This document shows, piece by piece, positions 27,414 to 42,680 of a DNA stretch of 64,000 bases. Source of the DNA: Chryseolinea sp. Its GTDB lineage: Bacteria; Bacteroidota; Bacteroidia; Cytophagales; Cyclobacteriaceae. Position numbers and translations under genes: made by a program. The number at the start of each line of letters is the position of its first letter. The first letter of the stretch is position 1. The stretch spans positions 139,253 through 203,252 of the forward strand of contig JBGSQQ010000030.1 in assembly GCA_041737945.1 (NCBI GenBank), written 5' to 3'. Below the pieces are notes generated by a model that made no database searches, was not told where the DNA came from, and worked only from the letters and a program-made list of their open reading frames with translations.

Positions 27414-28988
27414 CATAGCCGTCAGGCTAATTTGTTAAGTAATTGATGATGAGGAGGAAAAAAGAGTTTAGTGCGTAGAATCCCGTTTGGGATTCAATGT
27501 CTTTCTTCCCATTTTTATATAGTTTTTATTTTTAGAAGGGGCGGGGTTTTTCAACCATTCCAATCCGCCCTTTCTTTCTCTTCAAAGATACAATCGATTA
27601 GCGGAGAAGTCGACAGAACCCAAGGATTTTACAACAAAAAATGCCTCTAGTTTGGCTCTGGCTCTTGTCAAATTTTTTGATCGTAAAACAATTTGGGAGT
27701 TAGCGCGGGCGACCAAATTCATTCAACGTAAATCCAAACTTTGTGCGGTGAAATTCCTTACCACATTGATGTTTGTACACCAACAAGGCAAAGATTTGAG
27801 TTTGCTCGACATCTGTGGTGACTTTTACACCCAACATGGTTTGCAGGTGAGAAAGCAATCTGTTCAGGAGCGGTTTAATGAACGCGCAGTTGCTTTTATG
27901 AAATCCATGTTGTGTAAACTGATGGAGAGCCAGCTTAACCTCACTGGCAAAGAAGAAAGGTTATCGTTTTTCAATCGGGTAAGGATTAAAGACTCCACAC
28001 GTTTTACATTACCTGCTGCTTATACCCAGTCCTATTCGGGAATGGGTGGTGCCCTTCTTAACAATGAATCAATGATTAGTATTCAATATGAATACGATCT
28101 GTTATCGGGTTCTACACTGGACTTGCGGTTAACCAATGGTACACGAAACGATCAACGTGATGCAAAAGAAAACACCCATGACATTGCTGAAAATGATTTG
28201 TTCATAAGAGATCTTGGTTACTCAACTACGAGCTATTTAAAACAGATTGTTGTTGGTAAAGCATATTTCTTAAATCGTTTGGGCCCACAACTGAATGTAT
28301 ATGAGGTAGGAAGGAAGGGCGAAGAGATAGACTTTTCAAAATGCAGGAAGAAAATAAAGAAACACAAGCTTCCCTATCTACATTACAATGTTGTTGTTGG
28401 CAAGGAGGCCCTGATACCTTGCCGATTAATTATCTATCCGGTAGACCAGGCTACCTATGAAAAGAGAGTACGTAAAACCACAAAACAAGCCAATGGCTAT
28501 GGATATCAAGTGTCCGATAACTTTAAATGCCGGGCTCAATTAAATCTTTATATCACCAACGTACCTGAAGAGAATTTGCCTTCCCATGTCGTCAAGAAAA
28601 CCTATGGCTTACGCTGGCAAATAGAATTGTTCTTTAAAGTATGGAAGACGCAAGCCAGGATAGATACGGTCAAGGGAATGAAAATCCACAGATTTGAATG
28701 CCAGTTGATCGCCAAATTATTATGGCTGGTGATCCAATGGAAAATATTTCGATTTGCCACAAAAAGTATAAGTGACACGCATCGTGGAGAATCCTGCAGT
28801 ATATGGAAATACTTCAAGCATGCATACAGGATAAATTCAATATTCAGAACTATATTAACAAAACCCCAAAAATTGATATGTTTGTTACTAGACGTAGCTA
28901 GGATAGCTCTTACCCAGTTTAAACTAGAAGAAAGGGATTGTAAGACTTCGCATCATAAAGCACTTCAAGTCTTAGCCTGACGGCTATG
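27414..28988 (+). mobile_element. IS4-family insertion sequence, 1575 bp (CAT-starting ends, IS231/ISH8-like)
   Basis: Perfect 17-bp inverted repeats CATAGCCGTCAGGCTAA (27414-27430 and 28972-28988) enclosing a DDE transposase. Confidence 0.92.
27652..28980 (+). CDS. IS4-family DDE transposase
   Basis: RIKDSTRF (D), FIRDLGY (D) and YGLRWQIELFFKVWK (YREK motif). The stop codon lies inside the right IR; the start codon is uncertain (TTG). Confidence 0.93.
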   Translation: MALALVKFFDRKTIWELARATKFIQRKSKLCAVKFLTTLMFVHQQGKDLSLLDICGDFYTQHGLQVRKQSVQERFNERAVAFMKSMLCKLMESQLNLTGKEERLSFFNRVRIKDSTRFTLPAAYTQSYSGMGGALLNNESMISIQYEYDLLSGSTLDLRLTNGTRNDQRDAKENTHDIAENDLFIRDLGYSTTSYLKQIVVGKAYFLNRLGPQLNVYEVGRKGEEIDFSKCRKKIKKHKLPYLHYNVVVGKEALIPCRLIIYPVDQATYEKRVRKTTKQANGYGYQVSDNFKCRAQLNLYITNVPEENLPSHVVKKTYGLRWQIELFFKVWKTQARIDTVKGMKIHRFECQLIAKLLWLVIQWKIFRFATKSISDTHRGESCSIWKYFKHAYRINSIFRTILTKPQKLICLLLDVARIALTQFKLEERDCKTSHHKALQVLA

Positions 28989-32232: not shown

Positions 32233-32842
32233 TATTGCAACTGAAGCCCTACCCAAATCAGTGTGTATCGTGGCGCGCCAAATGACATATGCTCATCCAT
32301 CTGAATTTTCCATGGCGCGCGGGCTCATGTTATTCTTTAGCGCCGGGTTTTACCCGGCGCTACCATATTTCGCCCCGATGGGGCTTTGCCTGCGCAGTAA
32401 TTGAAAGATGCTGAACCAGATGAGTTGATCATCTCGCCCAATCTTTGACAATTCCGGAAAAGATAGAATGATGAATTATAGTCGACTGATGAATAGCCCT
32501 CTCCTCCGGAGAGGGTTGGGTGAGGCCTCATTCGCATAAGCTCCGGCATATTACAGCTGAAACCCTACCCGAATCAGCGCGTATCGTTGCGCGCCAAATG
32601 ACATATGCTCATCCATCTGAATTTTCGATGGCGCGCGGGCTCATGTTATTCTTTAGCGCCGGGTTTTACCCGGCGCTACCATATTTCGCCCCGATGGGGC
32701 TTTGCCTGCGCAGTAATTGAAAGATGCTGAACCCGATGTGCTGATCATCTCGCCCAATCTTTGACAAATCCGGAAAAGACAGAATAATGAATTATAGTCG
32801 ACTGACGAATAGCCCTCTCCTCCGGAGAGGGTTGGGTGAGGC
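32233..32842 (+). repeat. Tandem duplication (316-bp period) of a 150-bp three-hairpin unit plus a 36-bp repeat
   Basis: Near-identical blocks start at 32233 and 32549; the 36-mers lie at 32491-32526 and 32807-32842. Confidence 0.92.
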
Positions 32843-32890
32843 TGGGCTGTTAGCCTTCAAAATCAGTGCGTATCGCTGCTGGATACTAAT

Positions 32891-32920
32891 AAAAAGTAAG
32901 GGCAGGTGTTTCACCTGCCC
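32891..32920 (-). terminator. Terminator of the T9SS peptidase gene
   Basis: Minus strand GGGCAGGTG-AAA-CACCTGCCC followed by TTACTTTTT. Confidence 0.8.
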
Positions 32921-32965
32921 AATGCTTAATGCTCAATGCCATTTGATCTAAACGGCCTAGCTGTT

Positions 32966-35900
32966 CTACTTCTTAATAAACTTCACAAGCCGCTGAGACC
33001 CATCGCGACTTACGACCTGAAGGACGTACACACCAGATTTGAGATCAACGGTACTAATACGTAACGACTGTGAATAAGTTCCTCTATAGACACTTTGTCC
33101 CTGTATGGTTTGAATATACAACATAGCATCTTTTGCGATCGTATCATCCATTTTAACGAACAGCTCATTTTCTACCGGCACTGGATAGATGGTTAAGCCT
33201 GACGTCTGTACTACAGAACCATCCTCTTCTGAAGTGGTTGCCAACATTCGGGCTGCGCTATTGTTGTTATCGCCAATGGTAAAGTGTATGGTGAGCGGCC
33301 GACCAACGTCTCCACCAGCTTCTGTGTCGGAATACGGGATGGCCTGAAGGGTGTACGCGCCAGCCTGGGGCATCCAGGGTTCGAAATAGGTTCCATAGTT
33401 ATCACCGGTGAGTGTATACGGGGCCGCATTTTGCAGACTGGTAAATTTGGTGTTTATGGAAAAAGTTACGCTACCTACCTGTCCCGTTGTATTGGCAACA
33501 ATCGTCTGACCGCTTGACCTCAGATCATCCGCATGGAGGATATCACCATCATGTAAACGACGCAGGACTTTCCCCGACGTATTGACGATATCATAACTGA
33601 CTACTGCACGCACACTTTCTTTAACGGTTAGATGTATCGTAAGGGACTTACCAGCGCCTCCACCGGCATCCGATGCTGAATACGGCGTAGCCGTAAGGGT
33701 GTAAGAGCCGGCCTCGGGTATCCATGGCTCGAAATAGGTTCCATAGTTGTCACCGGTGAGTGTATACGGGGACTCATTTTGCATTTTGAAAAAAGTACCA
33801 TTTACAAAAAACTCCACACTCCCTGGCTGTCCCGTTGTATTAGCAACAATGGTCTGGCCTGTCGCTTTCAAATCGTCCAATTCAAGGACATCACCTTCAT
33901 TTAAACGACGAAGAACCGTTCCGGAGGTATTGACGATATCATAACTGAGAACGGAAGTTTCGGGCATAACGGTAAAGCGTATGGTGAGCGACCCACCAGC
34001 GTCTCCACCGCCATCTGATTCGGAGTACGGCGTAGCGTTGATTGTGTAGGAGCCGGCGTCGGGTATCCATGGCTCGAAGTATGTACCATAGTTGTCACCC
34101 GTGAGTGTATACGGAGACTCATTTTGCATTTTGAAAAAAGTATCATTTAAGAAAAACTCCACGCTGCCGGGCTGTCCCGTTGTATTCGCAACAATGGTCT
34201 GTCCTGTGGCTTTCAGATCATCCAACTGGAGAACATCCCCTTCATTCAAATGACGAAGAACCGTTCCGGAAGTATTGACGATATCATAACTGAGAACAGA
34301 AGTTTCTGGCATAACAGTAATGTGTAAGGTTAGCGGCCCACCAGCGTCTCCACTGCCATCTGATTTGGAATACGGTGTGGCGCTGATTGTATAGGATCCG
34401 GCATCGGGTATCCATGGCTCGAAATAGGTTCCATTATTATCCCCGGTGAGTGTATACGGGGACTCATTTTGTATTTTAAAAAAAGTAGTATTTACAAAAA
34501 ACTCCACGCTCCCTGGCTGCCCCGTTGTATTCGCAACAATGGTCTGGCCTGTAGCCTTCATATCTTCCAACTGGAGAACATCGCCTTCATTTAAACGACG
34601 CAAAACCTGGCCGGAAGTATTTACGAGGTCATAACTGACCACGGCTAAAGAATTTGTTCCGGTTTCCTGAAGCTCAGCAATCCAGTAGTCATAGTCGCCC
34701 TTACTATTCTCACTTTTATCTCCGGAGGCATCAGAACGAGAATATCCTGCCAGCAGATAACCACCAGTGGGGGTGAGAATGGTACTTGTTAGAAAATCTA
34801 AAGAACTTCCTCCGATTGTCTTATCCCATACTTTGTTGCCCTGGTCATCAATTTTTAAAGCCCAGTAGTCTTCAACACCTTTGCTAGCCTCACTCTTATC
34901 TCCGGAGGTACCCGAGTTTGAATAACCCGCCAACAGATAGCCTCCGTCAGGGGCAGATACGACGCTGGCACAAACGTCAGAAGCATTTCCCCCATAAGTT
35001 TTATCCCATACTTTATTGCCGGTAGCATCTATTTTTACGACCCAAAAATCATTTTCGCCTTTCCTATTTTCGCTTTTATCTCCGGAAGCATCGGAAAAAG
35101 AATATCCTGCGAGCAGATAACCGCCGTCAGCGGTGAGAAGGGTGGCGGAAAGTTGATCATCACTAATTCCTCCCAGGGTTTTATCCCATACTTTGTTTCC
35201 CTGGTTGTCAAGTTTCACTACCCAGTAGTCCGTTCCACCTTTGTTATTCTCACTCTTATCACCTGAAATACCGGATCTGGAATATCCGCCCACCAGGCAG
35301 CCCCCGTCAGCGGAAGGCGATACACTTCGAAGTTCATCTTCTCTATTCCCGCCGATAGTTCTATCCCAAATTTTATTGCCTTGTCCATCAATTCTCACGA
35401 CCCAGTAGTCTATAATACCTTTGTTGTTTTCGCTCTTATCTCCGGAGGCACTGGATTCTGAGTAACCCGCCAACAGATAACCTCCACCGGGCATGGCGAT
35501 TCCACTAAAAAGTAAATCACCTCTATTCCCGCCATAGGTTTTGTCCCAAAGCTTATTACCCTGGTCGTCAATTTTTACTACCCAATAGTCAAAGAAACCT
35601 TTTCTATTTTCACTCTTATCGCCAGAGGCATTAGATTGCGAATAGCCTGCCAGCAGATAACCTCCACCAGGAGCGTGGATTACACTTCGAAGTTCGTCCG
35701 AATCAGCCCCTCCAAAGGTCTTGTCCCACAGCCTGTTTTTCTGAGCATCAACTTTTACAATCCAATAGTCGGATGCACCTCGGGTGTCCTCACTTTTATC
35801 TCCCGAAGCGTTCGAATTCGAGTGTCCTGCCAGCAAATAACCTCCATCGGCAGTCGCGATAACACTTCTAAGTTGGTCAGTACCCGCCCCTCCAAGGGTT

Positions 35901-37849
35901 TTGTTAGACAGTGTACCACTTATGCTTACCTGAAAGGATACAGTACGTGCGACGCCAACTTCGGAAGCATAAAAAGGTGTCGCGGTTAACGTGTATTCGC
36001 CAGGCAACAACGTTCTACCAATAAAATCGCCGTCGGAATCCCCAAACAGCCCATAGGGAGGTTCACTGTCCACCTGATGATGGGCTATCGGACCTTCGAG
36101 GCTGAACTCTACCCGCTCTATTATTCCAGACGATGTATTGGCACGAACACTGAATGTTTTTCCTTCCCATGCTGGCGGGTGGATAACCAGACCATCCGGT
36201 AATTCAGCAACGGCTTCATCTTTGTCGGCATCAATCAGTGTAAAACTTTCAACCGTAATTTTCTTTTCGCCAGGAATGTTGACACTTACGGCAGTAGAAA
36301 TAGTCTGAGCACCTGTTGGGTCCGTCAACTTAAGTCTGATCAGATAATTGCCCGGACTTGCATATTGATGCTGTACTGTCTTGTTCGTACTGGGTTCTGT
36401 ATCGAACTCGCCGTCGTTGTCTACATCCCAGGATGCCAGTAGTGATGACTGATTTTGATCCACGTCATATGACAGCGAAGCGTCCAACTCAATCGGCTGG
36501 TTCATTGCCGGAAATGCAGGATTAATTCTGATAAAGGGAACGGGCGCCTGGTTGTTTCCAACCGGCACATTAAACTGCACATCCACGCCGGTTTTGTTGC
36601 CCTGCATGTCCAGCACAAAGACCGTATACCGGTTGATTTCGCCTTGGGTGAAGTATGGAACGGCAAACGTGGCGTTCAATGCCGTAGTGCCTTTCAATAA
36701 CATTTCAGCGGCCATGTTTCCTCCGTGTGTCAGATAAGCGAAACTAAACCCATCAGGATCCGAAGCTTGAAACGAAATGCGAACAAGTCCCTGTTGGGGA
36801 GTAACAGATGGTTGAACAACAGGGGAAACAGAAGGGCCATCCGTTACCATTTTGTCGCTGTTAAAATAGTGACTCACGTTGAGATACAGCGCTGAGGCGT
36901 ATTCCAACCGGGTGAAGTCCTGCGGATACGTCTCCGGGAAAAGACTTCCCCGTGTTCCGCGTAATCCGTTGCCCATCAAATTGCCGTGGAAATTATCATC
37001 GTTCCGGTAGTCGTGTGACAGGCCGAAGCCATGGCCTGTCTCATGCCATAAGGCGCCTAGCCAGGACGATGCTACTGAACTAAAGGTCGTTCCTTCAAAC
37101 CAGGCAAATGTCACATCCTGTTTCATAGGATAAGGCCCAAGTTCGGGGAGCACTTTCCCATCGTACTGAGTTTCATCCGTGATTATTTCCGGGCGCAGGA
37201 AAGGCAAGGCATTACTGCTGATCATTGACAAACCAGGACTGTTACCTGAGCCTTCACCGGAACCCAACGCCACTCCTCCTGTCAAACTTCCATCGGGCAG
37301 CATCAAATGAGCTTCAGGAATTAGCACCCACACTTCGCCAGGGGCCCACAGTGAAATACCGGCATTACTAGCTGCCTGCTGGGCTCTTCCCCAAAGATCG
37401 CCACGCAAGTACTCATCGGTTTCGCTGACTTGTACCACGTGAATCAACGGGGTTACACCATCAGCTTCCGTTTCATACTTGTAGGTCTTCGGCCCAAAGC
37501 CATTCTGCTCCATTTGTTCTTTAAAGAATTGTTGTCCCGCTTTAATGGCATATTGCAAATTGGCCACACCATTAGGTTGGGGTGTGCGGTTTGACGGAAT
37601 CACATAGGCCACCCGTAGCATGGCTCCTGCGCTAGCTGCTCTCCTCACAAATGATGTCTGCTGAGGCGGTCGGACTTGACACGAGTCGGACGATGACAAG
37701 AAAACGGATGACTTCTGAGAGAAGGAAGCAAATACCACATGGGTTAAAAGAATTCCTGTCAGCAGTATTTTCTTTAGTGGAGCGAGTCGACATGCATGGC
37801 CAAAAGCAATTTCAAAAAGGCTCATTCGTGTGTGGATGGTAGGATTCAT
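32966..37849 (-). CDS. Multidomain T9SS type-A cargo: metzincin-like Zn peptidase, PKD, beta-propeller, Ig-like repeats and CTD
   Basis: HETGHGFGLSH (HExxHxxGxxH); PKD-like SWDVDNDGEFD...YASPGNY; eight ~51-aa WDKT.GG..D repeats; four ~114-aa repeats; C-terminal IYPVPVEN...LKSGVYVLQV...VKFIKK. Confidence 0.88.
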   Translation of the reverse strand: MNPTIHTRMSLFEIAFGHACRLAPLKKILLTGILLTHVVFASFSQKSSVFLSSSDSCQVRPPQQTSFVRRAASAGAMLRVAYVIPSNRTPQPNGVANLQYAIKAGQQFFKEQMEQNGFGPKTYKYETEADGVTPLIHVVQVSETDEYLRGDLWGRAQQAASNAGISLWAPGEVWVLIPEAHLMLPDGSLTGGVALGSGEGSGNSPGLSMISSNALPFLRPEIITDETQYDGKVLPELGPYPMKQDVTFAWFEGTTFSSVASSWLGALWHETGHGFGLSHDYRNDDNFHGNLMGNGLRGTRGSLFPETYPQDFTRLEYASALYLNVSHYFNSDKMVTDGPSVSPVVQPSVTPQQGLVRISFQASDPDGFSFAYLTHGGNMAAEMLLKGTTALNATFAVPYFTQGEINRYTVFVLDMQGNKTGVDVQFNVPVGNNQAPVPFIRINPAFPAMNQPIELDASLSYDVDQNQSSLLASWDVDNDGEFDTEPSTNKTVQHQYASPGNYLIRLKLTDPTGAQTISTAVSVNIPGEKKITVESFTLIDADKDEAVAELPDGLVIHPPAWEGKTFSVRANTSSGIIERVEFSLEGPIAHHQVDSEPPYGLFGDSDGDFIGRTLLPGEYTLTATPFYASEVGVARTVSFQVSISGTLSNKTLGGAGTDQLRSVIATADGGYLLAGHSNSNASGDKSEDTRGASDYWIVKVDAQKNRLWDKTFGGADSDELRSVIHAPGGGYLLAGYSQSNASGDKSENRKGFFDYWVVKIDDQGNKLWDKTYGGNRGDLLFSGIAMPGGGYLLAGYSESSASGDKSENNKGIIDYWVVRIDGQGNKIWDRTIGGNREDELRSVSPSADGGCLVGGYSRSGISGDKSENNKGGTDYWVVKLDNQGNKVWDKTLGGISDDQLSATLLTADGGYLLAGYSFSDASGDKSENRKGENDFWVVKIDATGNKVWDKTYGGNASDVCASVVSAPDGGYLLAGYSNSGTSGDKSEASKGVEDYWALKIDDQGNKVWDKTIGGSSLDFLTSTILTPTGGYLLAGYSRSDASGDKSENSKGDYDYWIAELQETGTNSLAVVSYDLVNTSGQVLRRLNEGDVLQLEDMKATGQTIVANTTGQPGSVEFFVNTTFFKIQNESPYTLTGDNNGTYFEPWIPDAGSYTISATPYSKSDGSGDAGGPLTLHITVMPETSVLSYDIVNTSGTVLRHLNEGDVLQLDDLKATGQTIVANTTGQPGSVEFFLNDTFFKMQNESPYTLTGDNYGTYFEPWIPDAGSYTINATPYSESDGGGDAGGSLTIRFTVMPETSVLSYDIVNTSGTVLRRLNEGDVLELDDLKATGQTIVANTTGQPGSVEFFVNGTFFKMQNESPYTLTGDNYGTYFEPWIPEAGSYTLTATPYSASDAGGGAGKSLTIHLTVKESVRAVVSYDIVNTSGKVLRRLHDGDILHADDLRSSGQTIVANTTGQVGSVTFSINTKFTSLQNAAPYTLTGDNYGTYFEPWMPQAGAYTLQAIPYSDTEAGGDVGRPLTIHFTIGDNNNSAARMLATTSEEDGSVVQTSGLTIYPVPVENELFVKMDDTIAKDAMLYIQTIQGQSVYRGTYSQSLRISTVDLKSGVYVLQVVSRDGSQRLVKFIKK

Positions 37850-38159
37850 ATAGACAGTTTGTTATTGTTGCCGGTAATTGATAGCATAGGTGATTTCCAG
37901 CAAGGCCTCCATTGGGGGTCTGATGTTCTTTTAGCGCGAATATTTACTTTAAAACTGCGTTGATCAGGTCATGATATCAATGAGGGTTCTCATTCTGTAG
38001 TGATGAAGTTTATCACGCGTATGTTGGCCGGAAGGTGAGAAACGTCATAGTTTGTGTGCTATATCCGTATTACATTGATTTATCCACGAAGACCTCGATT
38101 TTCTTATGATATCACTGGCGTCTGAAATGACGAGTGTGCTAATAAGAGATGTAGACGAT

Positions 38160-38296
38160 TTTGGCGTGCCCTCGTACAACCTTTCGCAGCCATTCATCAT
38201 GCTTGCTCGGGCCGGGCTTTCGGCACTCGCCAATCAACCCACGTGCTCCCGATAGCTATCGGGAGGGGCTCAGACAAATGCCTCAATCCCTCACGC
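38160..38296 (-). ncRNA. Second Flavo-1-like structured RNA motif
   Basis: Minus strand GCGTGAGGGATTGAGGC...GCCGAAAGCCCGGCCC...GGGCACGCCAAA. Its variable stem is the 20-bp palindrome CTCCCGATAGCTATCGGGAG (38246-38265). Confidence 0.5.
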
Positions 38297-38333
38297 GATT
38301 TGTTGGCAGGTGTTGCCAGTGCATGATTTTTGA

Positions 38334-38373
38334 GCCTGCCTGCCGGAGGTAGGGCCTGCCTGCCGGAGGTAGG
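38334..38373 (+). repeat. Tandem 20-bp GCCTGCCTGCCGGAGGTAGG repeat (CCTGCC..GGCAGG-type palindromic repeat)
   Basis: Exact copies at 38334-38353 and 38354-38373; related motifs at 38767, 39425 and in the IS4 flanks. Confidence 0.85.
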
Positions 38374-38399
38374 TGGGAGTGTGTTGCTATCTTGTGCTG

Positions 38400-39785
38400 A
38401 CGATGATTGTAGTTTCTCTTGGCCTACGTCTCCTTCTTACTTGCATCTAATTTTCCGCCGTCGAACTTGTAGGTCACACAGCCGTAGGTATATTGCAAAT
38501 GAATCCCCACCCGAATCAGTGTGCCATGTTACGCGCCAAACACCCAGAAAACACCTATTGACTTTTTCCTGGCGCGTGGGCCCATGCTTTTTGCTGGCGC
38601 CGGGTTGAAACCCGGCGCTACAATAGTGCCGCCCCGCTGGGGCTTGTCTTAGCTGGTGGACGTTCTTTTCAAAATCGTCATTGCGAGGTTGCTTACTTGC
38701 GCAGCAAGTATATGCAACCGTGGCAATCCCCGTTCTACGTAGCGCGCACGTTGTAGTTCGGGGTTGGCCTGCCGGCAGGCTTTACGCTTACGCACAAGAC
38801 CAACGCTCCAGTTCGCAATGACGTGGACTTCCAACAGACCCGGCGCTACTTACCACTAACTTCTACCTTCAAACTTGTAGACGAGATAGCTTTGTTATTT
38901 TGCAAATGAACCCCCACCCGAATCAGTGTGCAAGGTTACGCGCCAAACATCCAACGAACATCAATTGACTTTTTCCTGGCGCGTGGGCTCGTGCAATTTG
39001 ATAGCGCCGGGTTGAAACCCGGCGCTACAATAATGTCGCCCCGCCGGGGCTGTCTGAACTGGTGGATGCTCTTTTTAAAATCGTCATTGCGAGGTTGCTT
39101 ACTTGCGCAGCAAGTATTCCGATAACTCCCGATAGCCAGTATGTTTGAAAATGCATAGGTCTTGCGAACTTTAATTAACCACAATTAAAGGCGTAAACCA
39201 CAAAAACCTATGCAAGAGAAAATTAACGAAAAGACATTTGAGGGTCAATCAATTTATGTTGGAATTGATGTTCACAAAAAGGACTGGAAAGTGACAATCA
39301 TGACAGCCGAGCTATCATACAAGACATTTTCATCTGTTCCCAAGGCAGAAAAGTTAGCTATCGGGACGGGAGCAACCGTGGCAATCCCCGTACTACATAG
39401 TGCGCACGTTGTAGTCCGGGGTTGGCCTGCCGGCAGGGTAGGGTGGTGAGTGGGTTGCTCACTTAGGATTTTTGCCGTCTGATCTGGCTTACGTGGCTAC
39501 TTCCTTACTTACTGTCTAATTCTATCTTCGAACTTTTAAGGCACACAGCTTTGGCATATTACAAATGAACCCCACCCGAATCAGTGTGCAAGGTTACGCG
39601 CCAAACATCCATGGAACATCTATTGACTTTTTCCTGGCGCGTGTGCCCATGCTATTTGTTGACGCCGGGTTGAAACCCGGCGCTACAATAGTGTCGCCCC
39701 GCTGGGGCTTTGCCTGACCTGGCGCAGGTTTCAAACGAGATCAAATGACGAATAGCCCTCTCCTCCGGAGAGGGTTGGGTGAGGC
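38400..39785 (+). repeat. Degenerate tandem triplication of a mosaic repeat unit
   Basis: Three-hairpin units at 38491-38643, 38898-39050 and 39557-39708, each preceded by a CTTCTAA/CTTCGAA-type leader. The first two are followed by GTCATTGCGAGG elements, the third by a 36-mer (39750-39785). Confidence 0.85.
39137..39358 (+). mobile_element. Truncated IS110-family element (left end plus about 49 codons of transposase)
   Basis: The ORF from 39210 reads MQEKINEKTFEGQSIYVGIDVHKKDWKVTIM, the IS110 DEDD N-terminal GIDVHK motif. It is flanked by CTCCCGA-TAGC and TAGC-TATCGGGA. Confidence 0.8.
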
Positions 39786-39825
39786 CTATGTCGCAACCTA
39801 ATTGCGCCAGGAGCCAACACGTTCA

Positions 39826-41007
39826 TCAAAGCTTTAACCGGAACTTCATTTTTTCAAGCAGCACGGGCAACCCAATGCCCATCACCACCGCCCACACAAC
39901 GGATCCGAGGATGACCAGCCCCGGCATCGGTAAATGTTTGTAGAAAAGAAAAGGCAGACTGAATTGCCAGATGATATAGTAGAACATGTCCGGCACGAGG
40001 TAAATGGTAAGTGAATTGGCACCTGCCGGCTGTAGAAAACGACTCCAGTTTACTTTTTTCAAAATATCAATGATCCAGAATAGCAAAGCAAATAGTAGCA
40101 TGGTGATGCCGTTGCAAATGAGCGCCCAGGTGTGTGTTGCCTGAATCTTGGAGATAATGAACCACGGCCGAAAAATGAAACCGGCAGCAATGCTCACCAT
40201 ACCCAACCCGGCAATAACCAAGGCAGTCCGTATAGCATTTTCGGTGGCATATTTTCTCAGGATAATGGTAATGAGCATTCCCGAAAGCACAATGAAAGTA
40301 GCGTTGCCATTGATAATGATGCCAAAGATGGGTCGTACCGGACTAAGAAAATCGAGCAGATGCAATTTTGAAAGCATATTCAGGATGAGGAAGAATAAAA
40401 CGCATACCAGGGTTTTCGAAATGTTGTCGCGGAACCACATGTATACAAAGGCTGCGACCCCGAAACCCCAACCGATTGTCCCAAGAATGCCCCAGGAATT
40501 GAATCGGAAAATTTGATCTTCGGCAGACCTGAAAATATACACCATGGGTAGTATCATCAGAACACCCAGCAGCTGAAGGCCGTAAACGATGTATTTATTC
40601 GTTGACTTGTCGTACGTATACCAAATCAGAAATACGCCGGTATACATGATCATCGACCACAAGCTCTTGGATATTCCGGTGTATGCTGCATCGACACTTC
40701 TCGAGTTGGACATCAGCACGCCGATGATAAGAAGACTTACCATGCGCACAAGAATATGTTTGATCAGCTCTTGTTGATTTTCTCCTTTGGATATCCGGTT
40801 CCCCACGGAATAGGGAATCGACATTCCCACCATAAACATAAATCCGGGGAATACCCAATCAGCCAGACCCATGCCATCGACGTCACCGTCCATATGACCC
40901 AGCCAGGCCGGTACACCGGGCATGTATAGATCATTGACGGATAACATAAGAACCAGATTAAATCCTCTCAGTATGTCGATAGATAGAATGCGGTTACTCT
41001 TTTGCAT
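39826..41007 (-). CDS. DUF5009 / heparan-alpha-glucosaminide N-acetyltransferase-like membrane protein
   Basis: RILSIDILRG..MLSVND, ADWVFPGFMFMVGMSIP and multiple TM segments. Probable start MQKSN at 41007. Confidence 0.85.
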   Translation of the reverse strand: MQKSNRILSIDILRGFNLVLMLSVNDLYMPGVPAWLGHMDGDVDGMGLADWVFPGFMFMVGMSIPYSVGNRISKGENQQELIKHILVRMVSLLIIGVLMSNSRSVDAAYTGISKSLWSMIMYTGVFLIWYTYDKSTNKYIVYGLQLLGVLMILPMVYIFRSAEDQIFRFNSWGILGTIGWGFGVAAFVYMWFRDNISKTLVCVLFFLILNMLSKLHLLDFLSPVRPIFGIIINGNATFIVLSGMLITIILRKYATENAIRTALVIAGLGMVSIAAGFIFRPWFIISKIQATHTWALICNGITMLLFALLFWIIDILKKVNWSRFLQPAGANSLTIYLVPDMFYYIIWQFSLPFLFYKHLPMPGLVILGSVVWAVVMGIGLPVLLEKMKFRLKL

Positions 41008-41157
41008 ATGAAAATGAAGTGACGAATAGCCATCTTCCACTCAGAGGGTTGGGTGAGGCTTAGACCTCTAATTTACTAAACTGGTCTACGTCTTGTCCTT
41101 TGCAGGCGGGTTTATTTTATACTTTCAAGATTGTGACCCTTTCACATAGCGCCGGCA

Positions 41158-41443
41158 TCTTACAGGCGAAACCTACCCCGAATCAGTCTGCCTCGTTGCG
41201 CGCCAGGACGCATACAGATCAAATTGATTTTCCGATGGCGCGCGGACTTGTTTCGTTATTAAGCGCCGGGTTTTACCCGGCGCTACCATATGTCGCCCCG
41301 ACGGGGCTTTGATTGAGTAATTTTGAATTTAGAGACTCTGAACAAGATGGCACTAACCATCTGGATACACGGTAATAAATCCGGAAGAATAAAAAAATAA
41401 AAATGACAAATAGCCCTCTCCTCCGGAGAGGGTTGGGTGAGGC
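41158..41443 (+). repeat. Three-hairpin unit (41158-41307) plus 36-bp repeat (41408-41443); degenerate 36-mer at 41024-41059
   Basis: Same motifs as the 32233 and 39557 copies. The 36-mer abuts the stop codon of the RraA-like gene. Confidence 0.88.
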
Positions 41444-42373
41444 CTAATGATCTTGTTTGGCTATATACGCTTCAATATCCTTTGACGTAATAGCTGTCTT
41501 CTTCGGATATTTTGCGAACCATGCCCGGAACTCATCTTTCATTTTGTCATTCCAATCACCATGCACATCTCCGGATGGATATTTTCCTAACTGCAGTATG
41601 TAGCGCTCAAATTCATCCCGCAAGCCGGTCATTTCTGAAGCGGTGACAAGGCCGTCAACCAGGTAAGCCGGAATAAACATGACGCCATAGTCGTTGGCAA
41701 ACACCACATCGCCCGGGAAAACTGTTACCATGCCAACGCGGATGGGCGCATTAATTGTAGTAGGCGTCATATCCTTAATAGCGGAAGGGTCGTTGCCTTT
41801 TATCCACGCATTAAAACCTTTCGTATCCCGTAACTCTTGCATGTCCCGTATGGAGCCATAAAAAACAACGCCCTTTCCGGTCTTTCCATAAATCGCATTT
41901 CCCAGACTTGAACCAATCAGCGTTCCATCCTTTACTTTTCCAAAACCATCCGCTACATAGATGTCTCCCTTGGTGAGTATATCAATGGGCCAGATGTTAA
42001 TTCCTCCCCGTTGATTGCGTCCTTCCGTTTTGCCTTGAGCTCTCACGTAGGTATCGAGGTCAGGTCTCGTGGGCATGAACTGGACCGTCACGGCGCGGCC
42101 TACCATGGTTTCGCCCGCTTTTAAAATGATCCAGTTATTCTCAAACTGATTATGAAAACCATTCTTTCCCAAATAGCTCCATATCTGTTCGAGTGTACAA
42201 TTCTGCAACCGCTCCAACGTATTGTCCGACACTTTTGGCCGACCATCCGCATAGCGTTCACCCTCCCACTTGGGCGTTAGTGCTTTAACATATTCTGGTG
42301 GAGCCCCAATATGCTGAGCCTGGGCACTCAGGCCCAATAAAACGACGAGGATAATCAACAATGTATTTTTCAT
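41444..42373 (-). CDS. RraA/HMG-aldolase (demethylmenaquinone methyltransferase-like) family protein with signal peptide
   Basis: MVGRAVTVQF, GDIYVADG...G.LIGSSLG, GVVFYGSIRD and VFPGDVVFANDYGVMFIP; N-terminal SPI (LSAQAQ). Confidence 0.8.
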   Translation of the reverse strand: MKNTLLIILVVLLGLSAQAQHIGAPPEYVKALTPKWEGERYADGRPKVSDNTLERLQNCTLEQIWSYLGKNGFHNQFENNWIILKAGETMVGRAVTVQFMPTRPDLDTYVRAQGKTEGRNQRGGINIWPIDILTKGDIYVADGFGKVKDGTLIGSSLGNAIYGKTGKGVVFYGSIRDMQELRDTKGFNAWIKGNDPSAIKDMTPTTINAPIRVGMVTVFPGDVVFANDYGVMFIPAYLVDGLVTASEMTGLRDEFERYILQLGKYPSGDVHGDWNDKMKDEFRAWFAKYPKKTAITSKDIEAYIAKQDH

Positions 42374-42644: not shown

Positions 42645-42680
42645 GAATAGCCCTCTCCTCCGGAGAGGATTGGGTGAGGC
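42645..42680 (+). repeat. 36-bp repeat copy
   Basis: GAATAGCCCTCTCCTCCGGAGAGGATTGGGTGAGGC, one substitution from the consensus. Confidence 0.9.

Follow-up and report, generated by a model that had tools for sequence, protein, structure and literature searches.

Two kinds of described repeat stand close to the element that is the subject of this work. Acido-Lenti-1 (RF01687) has been in Rfam since 2010 with its function unexplained, and annotators still report the motif without explanation; its published consensus is CCYAGYnCUnACGn-RCYRGGCURnnnUAURnCGUnCYUYCRGnACU (Weinberg et al. 2010, PMC2864571). Repetitive extragenic palindromes (REPs) have GTAG or GTGG 0–2 nt 5′ of a hairpin with a fully paired basal stem of 7–20 nt and a loop of 2–5 nt, at least three of the first four stem bases being G or C (Quentin et al. 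2018, PMC6006769). Here we analyse a 64-kb window of a 236-kb Chryseolinea sp. contig (JBGSQQ010000030.1, positions 139,253 to 203,252), which holds six copies of an intergenic repeat of ~156 nt, element A. We take element A for a longer, locally duplicated form of Acido-Lenti-1, a known repeat that is still unexplained, and not for a new kind of element; within this one genome its hairpins stay constant while the sequence between them drifts.

Direct-repeat finding, alignment and a profile hidden Markov model (HMM) agree on six copies, all on the plus strand. The profile (nhmmer) finds exactly six matches in the window, with E-values from 1e-42 to 3e-49, and the core pattern of the element has five exact matches against 0.00 expected (none in 100 shuffles), which confirms the six three-hairpin copies of a preliminary description made from the letters of the stretch. 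Copy c1 occupies 32233–32388 (E = 3e-49), with the leader at its 5′ end, stem 1 at 32273–32320 and the module formed by stems 2 and 3 at 32341–32385. Copy c2 lies at 32549–32704 (stem 1, 32589–32636; module, 32657–32701), c3 at 38491–38646 (stem 1, 38531–38577, with an A-T closing pair; module, 38598–38644) and c4 at 38898–39052 (stem 1, 38938–38984; module, 39005–39051). Copy c5, in which the ninth pair of stem 2 is an A.C mismatch, lies at 39557–39712 (stem 1, 39596–39642; module, 39663–39709), and c6 at 41158–41311 (stem 1, 41198–41243; module, 41264–41308). The covariance model built from the element itself gives 43 bits for c1, 52.5 for c3, 54.4 for c4 and 52.6 for c5.

Each copy folds into three separate hairpins, by single-sequence prediction as well as by RNAalifold, and the ends of the element do not pair together. 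Stem 1 has 8 bp, GCGCGCCA/TGGCGCGC in c1, c2 and c6 and ACGCGCCA/TGGCGCGT in c3–c5, around a loop of 30–32 nt; it is preceded by a conserved leader of ~40 nt, TATTGCAAATGAA.CCCCACCCGAATCAGTGTGC. Stem 2 has 9–11 bp, (TA)GCGCCGGGT/ACCCGGCGC(TA), with A or G before the first base of the core stem, a hairpin loop of either UUU (3 nt; c1, c2, c6) or UGAA, and CTAC following. Stem 3 has 5 bp, GCCCC-NNN-GGGGC. The layout of these three stems had been given correctly in the preliminary description, and all of it matches the alignment and the RNAalifold structure of the six copies. A candidate outer helix, between CCC of the leader and GGG after stem 1, was rejected: the changes in c5 and c6 break the pairing and are not compensated.

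The comparison with Rfam proposed in the preliminary description returns nothing in element A at the curated gathering threshold. At E-value thresholds it returns RF01687, end to end, at 36.7 bits for c6, 35.1 for c4 and 33.0 for each of c1 (at 32341–32385) and c2, just below the gathering score of 37 bits; c5 is not listed, nor is c3, for which there is no report at E ≤ 10. The cmscan alignment of stems 2 and 3 spans model positions 1–46. The fit extends to the architecture, in which hairpins of 8 bp (4-nt loop) and 5 bp (3-nt loop) are joined by a linker of 12 nt and CU closes the motif. Unpaired nucleotides conserved in the family are present as well: hairpin 1 is followed by GCUR, the linker has UAU, CG stands ahead of hairpin 2 and CU is terminal; the shared form is G-CUA/…UAU(G).CG. 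The linker reads CUACCAUAUGUCG in c6 and CUACAUUAUGUCG in a Lentisphaera member, whose stem sequences are entirely different, and c6 and the Geobacter member have the same stem 3, GCCCCGACGGGGCU. From these comparisons, we treat stems 2 and 3 as a divergent, borderline member of RF01687, and not a curated one because the gathering threshold is narrowly missed.

A joint alignment strengthens this relation. It combines the five distinct modules of the window (c1 and c2 are identical there), three modules from a metagenome locus, L117, and 40 published members. Of its cells, 95.7% are paired, and both-side changes occur in 12 of the 13 pairs. The covariation score is 0.761, against 0.198 for shuffles, none of 500 of which reach it, and at most 0.131 for slid partners; the covariation that was to be checked on a larger alignment is thus found there. 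Column by column, the window modules can be matched to published members of the Lentisphaerae, Acidobacteria, Planctomycetes and Geobacter. For this reason, and given the near-threshold match to RF01687, the preliminary description was wrong in calling the element lineage-specific. A match to a catalogued family, which it had named as counting against its reading, has come about in part, at 33–36.7 bits against a gathering score of 37.

Element A also departs from the family as described. Its host belongs to the Bacteroidota, whereas Acido-Lenti-1 was described from Acidobacteria and Lentisphaerae; a 2026 preprint gives Acido-Lenti-1 matches in Tannerella. The loop of its first module hairpin is UUU or UGAA, while UNAC dominates in the family. 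Moreover, the module sits inside a unit of ~156 nt that carries an extra GC stem with a variable loop of 30–32 nt and a leader. Of the published members seen, the Geobacter copy alone has such additions, apart from whale-fall sequences, which have a larger hairpin at that position. The published copy from Geobacter uraniireducens has a perfect hairpin, CCGUCGCG-UAC-GCGACGG, at the position of stem 1, a stem 3 like that of c6, and a leader that begins UAUAUUGCGAAU, compared with UAUAUUGCAAAU in c3; TATATTGC is common to it and element A in the same relative place. Because the Geobacter copy, too, has a middle hairpin and a 5′ leader, the layout of ~150 nt spans phyla. In the Bacteroidota subfamily, then, the catalogued 46-nt motif is only the 3′ third of a three-hairpin unit of ~150 nt, in common with the Geobacter copy.

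The six copies represent three independent loci and two subfamilies. Copies c1 and c2 form a tandem duplication of 316 bp, 95% identical, which includes repeat B, a separate repeat family treated below; their 294-nt units lie at 32233–32526 and 32549–32842. Copies c3, c4 and c5 belong to a tandem unit of ~407 bp, 85–88% identical, with two consecutive units (c3 to c4 and c4 to c5) on the plus strand at 38491–39556 and spacings of 407 and 658; the c4–c5 unit measures 659 bp because it contains, at 39118–39371, an IS110-family remnant of 253 bp. Metagenome contigs without this insert exist, with the joint at 39123>39367. Copy c6 is solitary. An alignment that includes the flanks shows no terminal inverted repeats and no target-site duplications, as a miniature inverted-repeat transposable element would have, and the tandem duplication explains the flanking units that copies share. 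Thus, element A has grown by tandem segmental duplication rather than by dispersal.

The hairpins are maintained in this genome by purifying constraint on the stems: although overall identity between the loci is just 68–77%, 41 of 44 stem columns are invariant, as opposed to 49 of 114 outside the stems (Fisher p = 2e-9). In the six-copy alignment, variable columns make up 69% of the stem-1 loop and 74% of the linker between stems 1 and 2. The compensatory changes put forward in the preliminary description hold in a narrower form: the swap of G-C for A-T is real, yet it concerns a single pair (alignment columns 41/88), changed once, and splits the two subfamilies. The covariation term of RNAalifold for the six copies alone is negligible (−0.19 kcal/mol).

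Element A is rare and local in this genome, unlike a typical REP family. In contigs from four metagenomes that hold this organism, its core has 2–3 times the depth of unique flanks, which the window's own copies account for, while repeat B reaches 10–17 times. In JGI metagenomes, a core pattern of 21 bases matches a single locus, L117. A scan of genome contigs with CCCGAATCAG-N80-110-GCTACNATA gives 116 loci, all chance matches, in which the element HMM finds nothing. No copy is present in ~115 kb of orthologous DNA from relatives around the DUF5009 gene that lies in this part of the window (80–84% amino-acid identity), nor in ~0.9 Mb of unrelated genomes; plasmid and phage searches give no match to the element, and translations of the open reading frames (ORFs) running through it have zero matches among 5.8 billion proteins. 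The host sequence itself is found only in hot-spring, biofilm and similar metagenomes. One further contig, at ~100x depth in all four hot-spring and biofilm runs, matches window positions 39678–39711 (the 3′ half of stem 2, the linker and stem 3) over 34 nt with 3 mismatches and repeats this stretch with a 15-nt spacer (AATACAAAATGCATG). It probably belongs to another, far more abundant community member with a related array.

What, then, does such a module do? We propose, with a probability of roughly 40%, that element A is a structured repeat module akin to REPs and bacterial interspersed mosaic elements (BIMEs). A Y1 HUH nuclease would be the most plausible protein to recognise it, in folded single-stranded form, and in this genome local tandem duplication alone has multiplied it. 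The conserved core, a GC-rich hairpin of 8 bp, a 12-nt linker (CUAC.AUA..UCG) and a hairpin of 5 bp, would act as folded single-stranded DNA during replication or repair, and possibly in transcripts too, and would be recognised by a structure- and sequence-specific protein. A candidate partner is a nuclease of the RAYT (REP-associated tyrosine transposase) or TnpA-REP type that would read the (G)TAG foot and hairpin of the minus strand. For element A, we infer the folding strand, the protein partner and the activity alike.

On the minus strand, all six copies read GTAG followed by CGCCGGGT(T)/(A)ACCCGGCG with a loop of AAAA or TC, a fully paired GC-rich stem of 8–9 bp with a loop of 2–4 nt; this GTAG hairpin, already pointed out in the preliminary description, agrees with the published REP descriptor in every copy. 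Comparison with REPs and BIMEs (Quentin et al. 2018, PMC6006769; Di Nocera et al. 2013, PMC3733652) brings out further likenesses, since element A is intergenic, clustered and in tandem, and alternates two different hairpins, with GTAG directly 5′ of a stem. The hairpins, atypical REPs, that flank Y1 genes of subclass 2.6 in Bacteroidetes include GGTAG-CCCGGGCAG… and GCTAG-CGCGAGCG-TCC-CGCTCGTG (PMC6006769), and element A resembles these forms, GGTAGCCCGGGCAG… and GCTAGCGCGAGCG-TCC-CGCTCGTG, in which GGTAG or GCTAG is joined to a GC stem of 8–9 bp and a loop of 3–4 nt. In K. versatilis, R. baltica and G. uraniireducens, all of which hold published Acido-Lenti-1 members, RAYT or TIRYT genes or GTAG repeat families have been reported. 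With inverted REP doublets (REPINs; Bertels and Rainey 2011, PMC3116915), the element shares a non-coding, hairpin-based unit of 100–150 nt kept under selection within a lineage.

A further consideration is which strand folds. Watson-Crick covariation is blind both to the strand and to RNA as opposed to DNA, and an A.C mismatch on one strand is a G.U pair on the other. Strand preference was therefore sought in the loops and mismatches of 70 distinct published Acido-Lenti-1 sequences, many of them related copies (PMC2864571, supplementary files 61 and 183). Read on the reverse strand, 47 of the 70 have a GNRA loop in hairpin 1 and 60 a GNNA loop, and 56 have GNA in hairpin 2; the same loop motifs on the annotated strand number 1 and 0 of 70, although C(UUCG)G occurs there in 8. 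The non-canonical cells of the published seed comprise 38 A.C or C.A against 8 G.U or U.G, about equal when counted by kinds of event. Before hairpin 1, the foot on the reverse strand is NYAG in most members (UUAG in 22, AUAG in 16, UCAG in 14 and GUAG in 5; n = 70). In L117, the nearest outside relative, two of the three units contain A.C, and the loops are GNNA on the reverse strand. Taken together, the loop motifs and mismatch types of the published family fit the strand opposite to the Rfam annotation, on which a (G)TAG-like foot precedes hairpin 1 as in REPs, and the orientation and extent of the Acido-Lenti-1 family may need revision. Should this re-reading be true, a catalogued “sRNA” would become a REP/BIME-type element that crosses phyla; if it is wrong, an orphan structured RNA is left.

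Several observations weigh against a REP-like identity. The strand evidence comes from the published class with UNAC loops, and the window subclass, with UGAA or UUU loops, is uninformative in this respect; the few wobbles of the window are mostly on the plus strand (c3 and c5 have G.U at columns 107/130, five copies have U.G at 40/89, and there is one A.C), and by kinds of event A.C and G.U are about equal in the seed. Canonical REPs are dispersed and abundant, whereas element A has about six copies within 9 kb. No RAYT gene, which the preliminary description had suggested looking for beside the hairpins, is present among window ORFs of at least 150 aa. The long conserved non-palindromic leader and linker go beyond what a RAYT is known to need. 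REPINs are inverted doublets of the same REP, mobilised by a RAYT (Bertels and Rainey 2011, PMC3116915), while every copy of element A has three different hairpins in direct order and no doublet symmetry. The unit is also ~156 nt long compared with 20–40 nt for a REP, and the foot in the wider family is NYAG and not GT[AG]G. The shared genomes and REP-like forms do not tie the motif directly to a nuclease, and Acido-Lenti-1 is not known to be linked to a Y1 nuclease. Of the two identities offered in the preliminary description, REP/REPIN-like element or structured non-coding RNA, both are live candidates, and its structural selection is supported; the copy number, the dispersal and the inverted doublets of REPs are what the element lacks.

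The behaviour of the published family bears on how the unit of ~150 nt arose. Published members form same-strand arrays with periods of 69, 74, 110, 115, 192 and 200 nt, and their neighbouring genes, like those of element A, have no consistent relation to them. One published whale-fall pair of modules is inverted around a central palindrome. Most published members have a second, often degenerate copy of the linker and hairpin 2, 25–50 nt upstream of hairpin 1. At L117, positions 1440–1960 hold a tandem array of three units with a period of 148 nt; an AAA_21/AAA_15 ATPase gene lies just upstream of the array, and a pyruvate kinase gene follows it downstream. Each unit has a two-hairpin module like stems 2 and 3, a degenerate upstream hairpin like stem 3 and a further hairpin (CCCCGAGGCGGGG). 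The simplest reading would be that the basic module tends to form tandem arrays and that the unit of ~150 nt is a dimer of this module that has become fixed, its upstream part having diverged. The leader and stem 1, including the variable loop, would then represent this upstream part in degenerate form, locked into the longer unit.

A different view is that each copy of element A is a gene for a trans-acting structured small RNA (sRNA) of ~150 nt on the plus strand, in which the conserved scaffold (leader and stems 2 and 3) would bind a protein and the variable stem-1 loop would distinguish the paralogues. Rfam and Weinberg et al. (2010, PMC2864571) class Acido-Lenti-1 as a likely sRNA from its covariation, and the strong covariation of the joint alignment, the constraint on the stems and the plus-strand wobbles at the bases of stems 1 and 2 are all in keeping with this, as are the C(UUCG)G loops on the annotated strand in 8 of 70 published members and the presence of TATATTGC at the same relative place in the Geobacter copy. 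Stem 3 is followed by TTTG or TTG, weakly flagged as terminator-like for c3 and c6. Bacteroidetes promoters have a −33/−7 consensus, and TTG-N18/19-TAT(A/T)TTGC upstream of c3 and c4 resembles it. However, this promoter-like motif is absent or degraded in c1, c2, c5 and c6, and there is no real U-tract past stem 3. Covariation separates neither RNA from DNA nor one strand from the other, and the loop motifs and mismatch types of the seed favour the opposite strand. In published arrays whose period is 69–74 nt, a promoter for every unit would not fit, which speaks against independent sRNA genes for the family as a whole. Complementarity of the stem-1 loops within the window is limited to 11-mers expected by chance, and a search for RNA runs finds none that contains the region. 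We regard an sRNA gene as the main rival to the REP/BIME-like reading, though less likely than it. The same loops could be given another role, with the unit of ~150 nt as an RNA or single-stranded DNA scaffold, the stem-1 insert as a guide-like, specificity-determining segment for an effector encoded elsewhere, and the array as a set of differently “programmed” paralogues. The insert measures 3 nt in Geobacter, ~20 nt in the whale-fall sequences and 30–32 nt, specific to each copy, in the window. This idea is highly speculative and we give it little credence. Alternatively, it is the reverse complement that would matter, as a cis element in 3′-untranslated or intergenic RNA of the minus strand, for example, an exonuclease barrier, a terminator helper or a gene insulator. 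All copies of A and B are co-oriented with the run of minus-strand genes at 32966–37849, 39826–41040 and 41444–42373; the GNRA loops and G.U pairs of the reverse strand fit RNA there, and a published Koribacter copy, antisense to a gene on the opposite strand, lies 10 nt from the stop of that gene. Stops beside published members number 37 on the opposite strand against 10 on the same strand, a count of little weight because the flanks cover 100 nt upstream but 300 nt downstream, an inequality that confounds it. Yet c1 and c2 lie beyond the strong terminator of gene 32966–37849, the reverse complement of repeat B, with a T-rich tail, already stands between gene 41444–42373 and c6, and c3–c5 are 640–1860 nt upstream of the start of the next gene, all of which makes such a cis role unlikely.

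Two more explanations concern the array itself. Integron attC sites are likewise same-strand structured repeats, of ~60–150 nt, that bracket single genes, and the copies of element A, as direct repeats around three successive single genes, might be recombination sites of this or a similar cassette array. The DUF5009 gene has different neighbours in relatives, and group II introns and IS110-family elements, which are known to target attC or REP hairpins, have been reported or are seen nearby. An attC site folds as one long imperfect bottom-strand hairpin with paired ends, whereas element A has three separate hairpins; its attC boxes have the consensus RYYYAAC…GTTRRRY, and such boxes do not occur at consistent positions in element A. 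No tyrosine recombinase or integrase is found among window ORFs of at least 150 aa, array periods of 69–200 nt in the published family are too short for cassettes, and one “cassette” would be a gene of 4.9 kb. Recombination sites are, for these reasons, the least credible of the explanations weighed here. That the copies are functionless leftovers of segmental duplication, merely looking structured, has in its favour that the 316-bp and ~407-bp duplications are real and that the region is rich in repeats and debris of insertion sequences. Against this stand the 41 invariant stem columns of 44 while loops and linkers are 69–74% variable in loci only 68–77% identical (p = 2e-9), and the retention across phyla of the same two-hairpin module with different stem sequences. 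Mere debris is thus very improbable.

The copies of element A fill three intergenic gaps around the three consecutive minus-strand genes, in the order A A [gene] A A A [gene] A [gene], the genes encoding a secreted protein, a DUF5009 acyltransferase and an RraA-like protein. The first, between c2 and c3, ends in a type IX secretion sorting domain, and the window also has SusC/SusD and PorP/SprF genes, which mark it as a Bacteroidota chromosome. The strong intrinsic terminator of this gene, GGGCAGGTG-AAA-CACCTGCCC with a T-rich tail, lies at 32920–32900. Among window ORFs of at least 150 aa there is no Y1 transposase (Y1_Tnp/RAYT), integrase or tyrosine recombinase domain; the sole transposase is a DDE gene at 27652–28980 (DDE_Tnp_1, 442 aa), ~3 kb upstream of c1. 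The product of gene 32966–37849 is a secreted protein of 1627 aa with PKD/Big domains and a Por_Secre_tail. The gene has in-frame tandem repeats of ~345 bp (four, 33274–34611) and 180 bp (at least six, 34682–35863), which are protein domain repeats unrelated to element A. The DUF5009 acyltransferase gene (39826–41040) is 80–90% identical to genes of relatives (L118–L125); its true start is probably ~11 codons downstream of that of the longest ORF, the homologues having 393–394 aa. In relatives it is surrounded by glutaminase, GH95, glyoxalase and AraC genes; here the gene has none of these close to it, and the locus has therefore been rearranged.

Repeat B, AATAG-CCCTCTCC-TCCG-GAGAGGG-TTGGGTGAGGC, is a separate family that follows copies c1, c2, c5 and c6 of element A. 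Its core lies at 32497–32526, with further plus-strand copies at 32813–32842, 39756–39785, 41414–41443 and 42651–42680 and a degenerate one at ~41030–41059; four copies share the same 30-nt core. An ATAG foot stands on the 5′ side of its hairpin, and the reverse complement of the repeat is flagged as terminator-like just past two minus-strand genes. Unlike element A, repeat B is a truly dispersed, high-copy repeat of the genome, as its depth, 10–17 times that of unique sequence, and its many different flanks in metagenome contigs show.

The 253-bp remnant in the c4–c5 unit, which contains an ORF at 39210–39449, is an internally deleted IS110-family element. It sits in the loop of a palindrome (GTCATTGCGAGGTTGC…GCAACCGTGGCAATCC) that is intact at 38675–38735. 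Pfam, PDB and plasmid searches do not recognise the 52-aa fragment; recognition comes from NCBIfam only, and on a longer, frameshifted relative in another metagenome locus (L126), which, when read through, gives at E = 1e-7 a match to NF033542 (IS110 family RNA-guided transposase). Short remnants of this kind are present on several metagenome contigs; no full-length copy was found. The possibility that element A is the non-coding end or bridge-RNA region of this IS110 element was rejected, as the L126 remnant has no adjoining A, B or C repeats. On a 3.9-kb contig of JGI 3300078620 (protein P0124), a related remnant adjoins an Xre/RES toxin-antitoxin pair and lies 1.5 kb from a gene for a Y1_Tnp protein of 148 aa (PF01797). 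Organisms with this remnant can thus encode Y1 HUH transposases, and a link to element A would be conjectural. Minor GC-rich repeats also occur in the same intergenic region: GGCCTGCCTGCCGGAGGTAGG is present twice in tandem, and GGCCTGCCGGCAGG recurs (38335–38375, 38765–38779 and 39423–39437).

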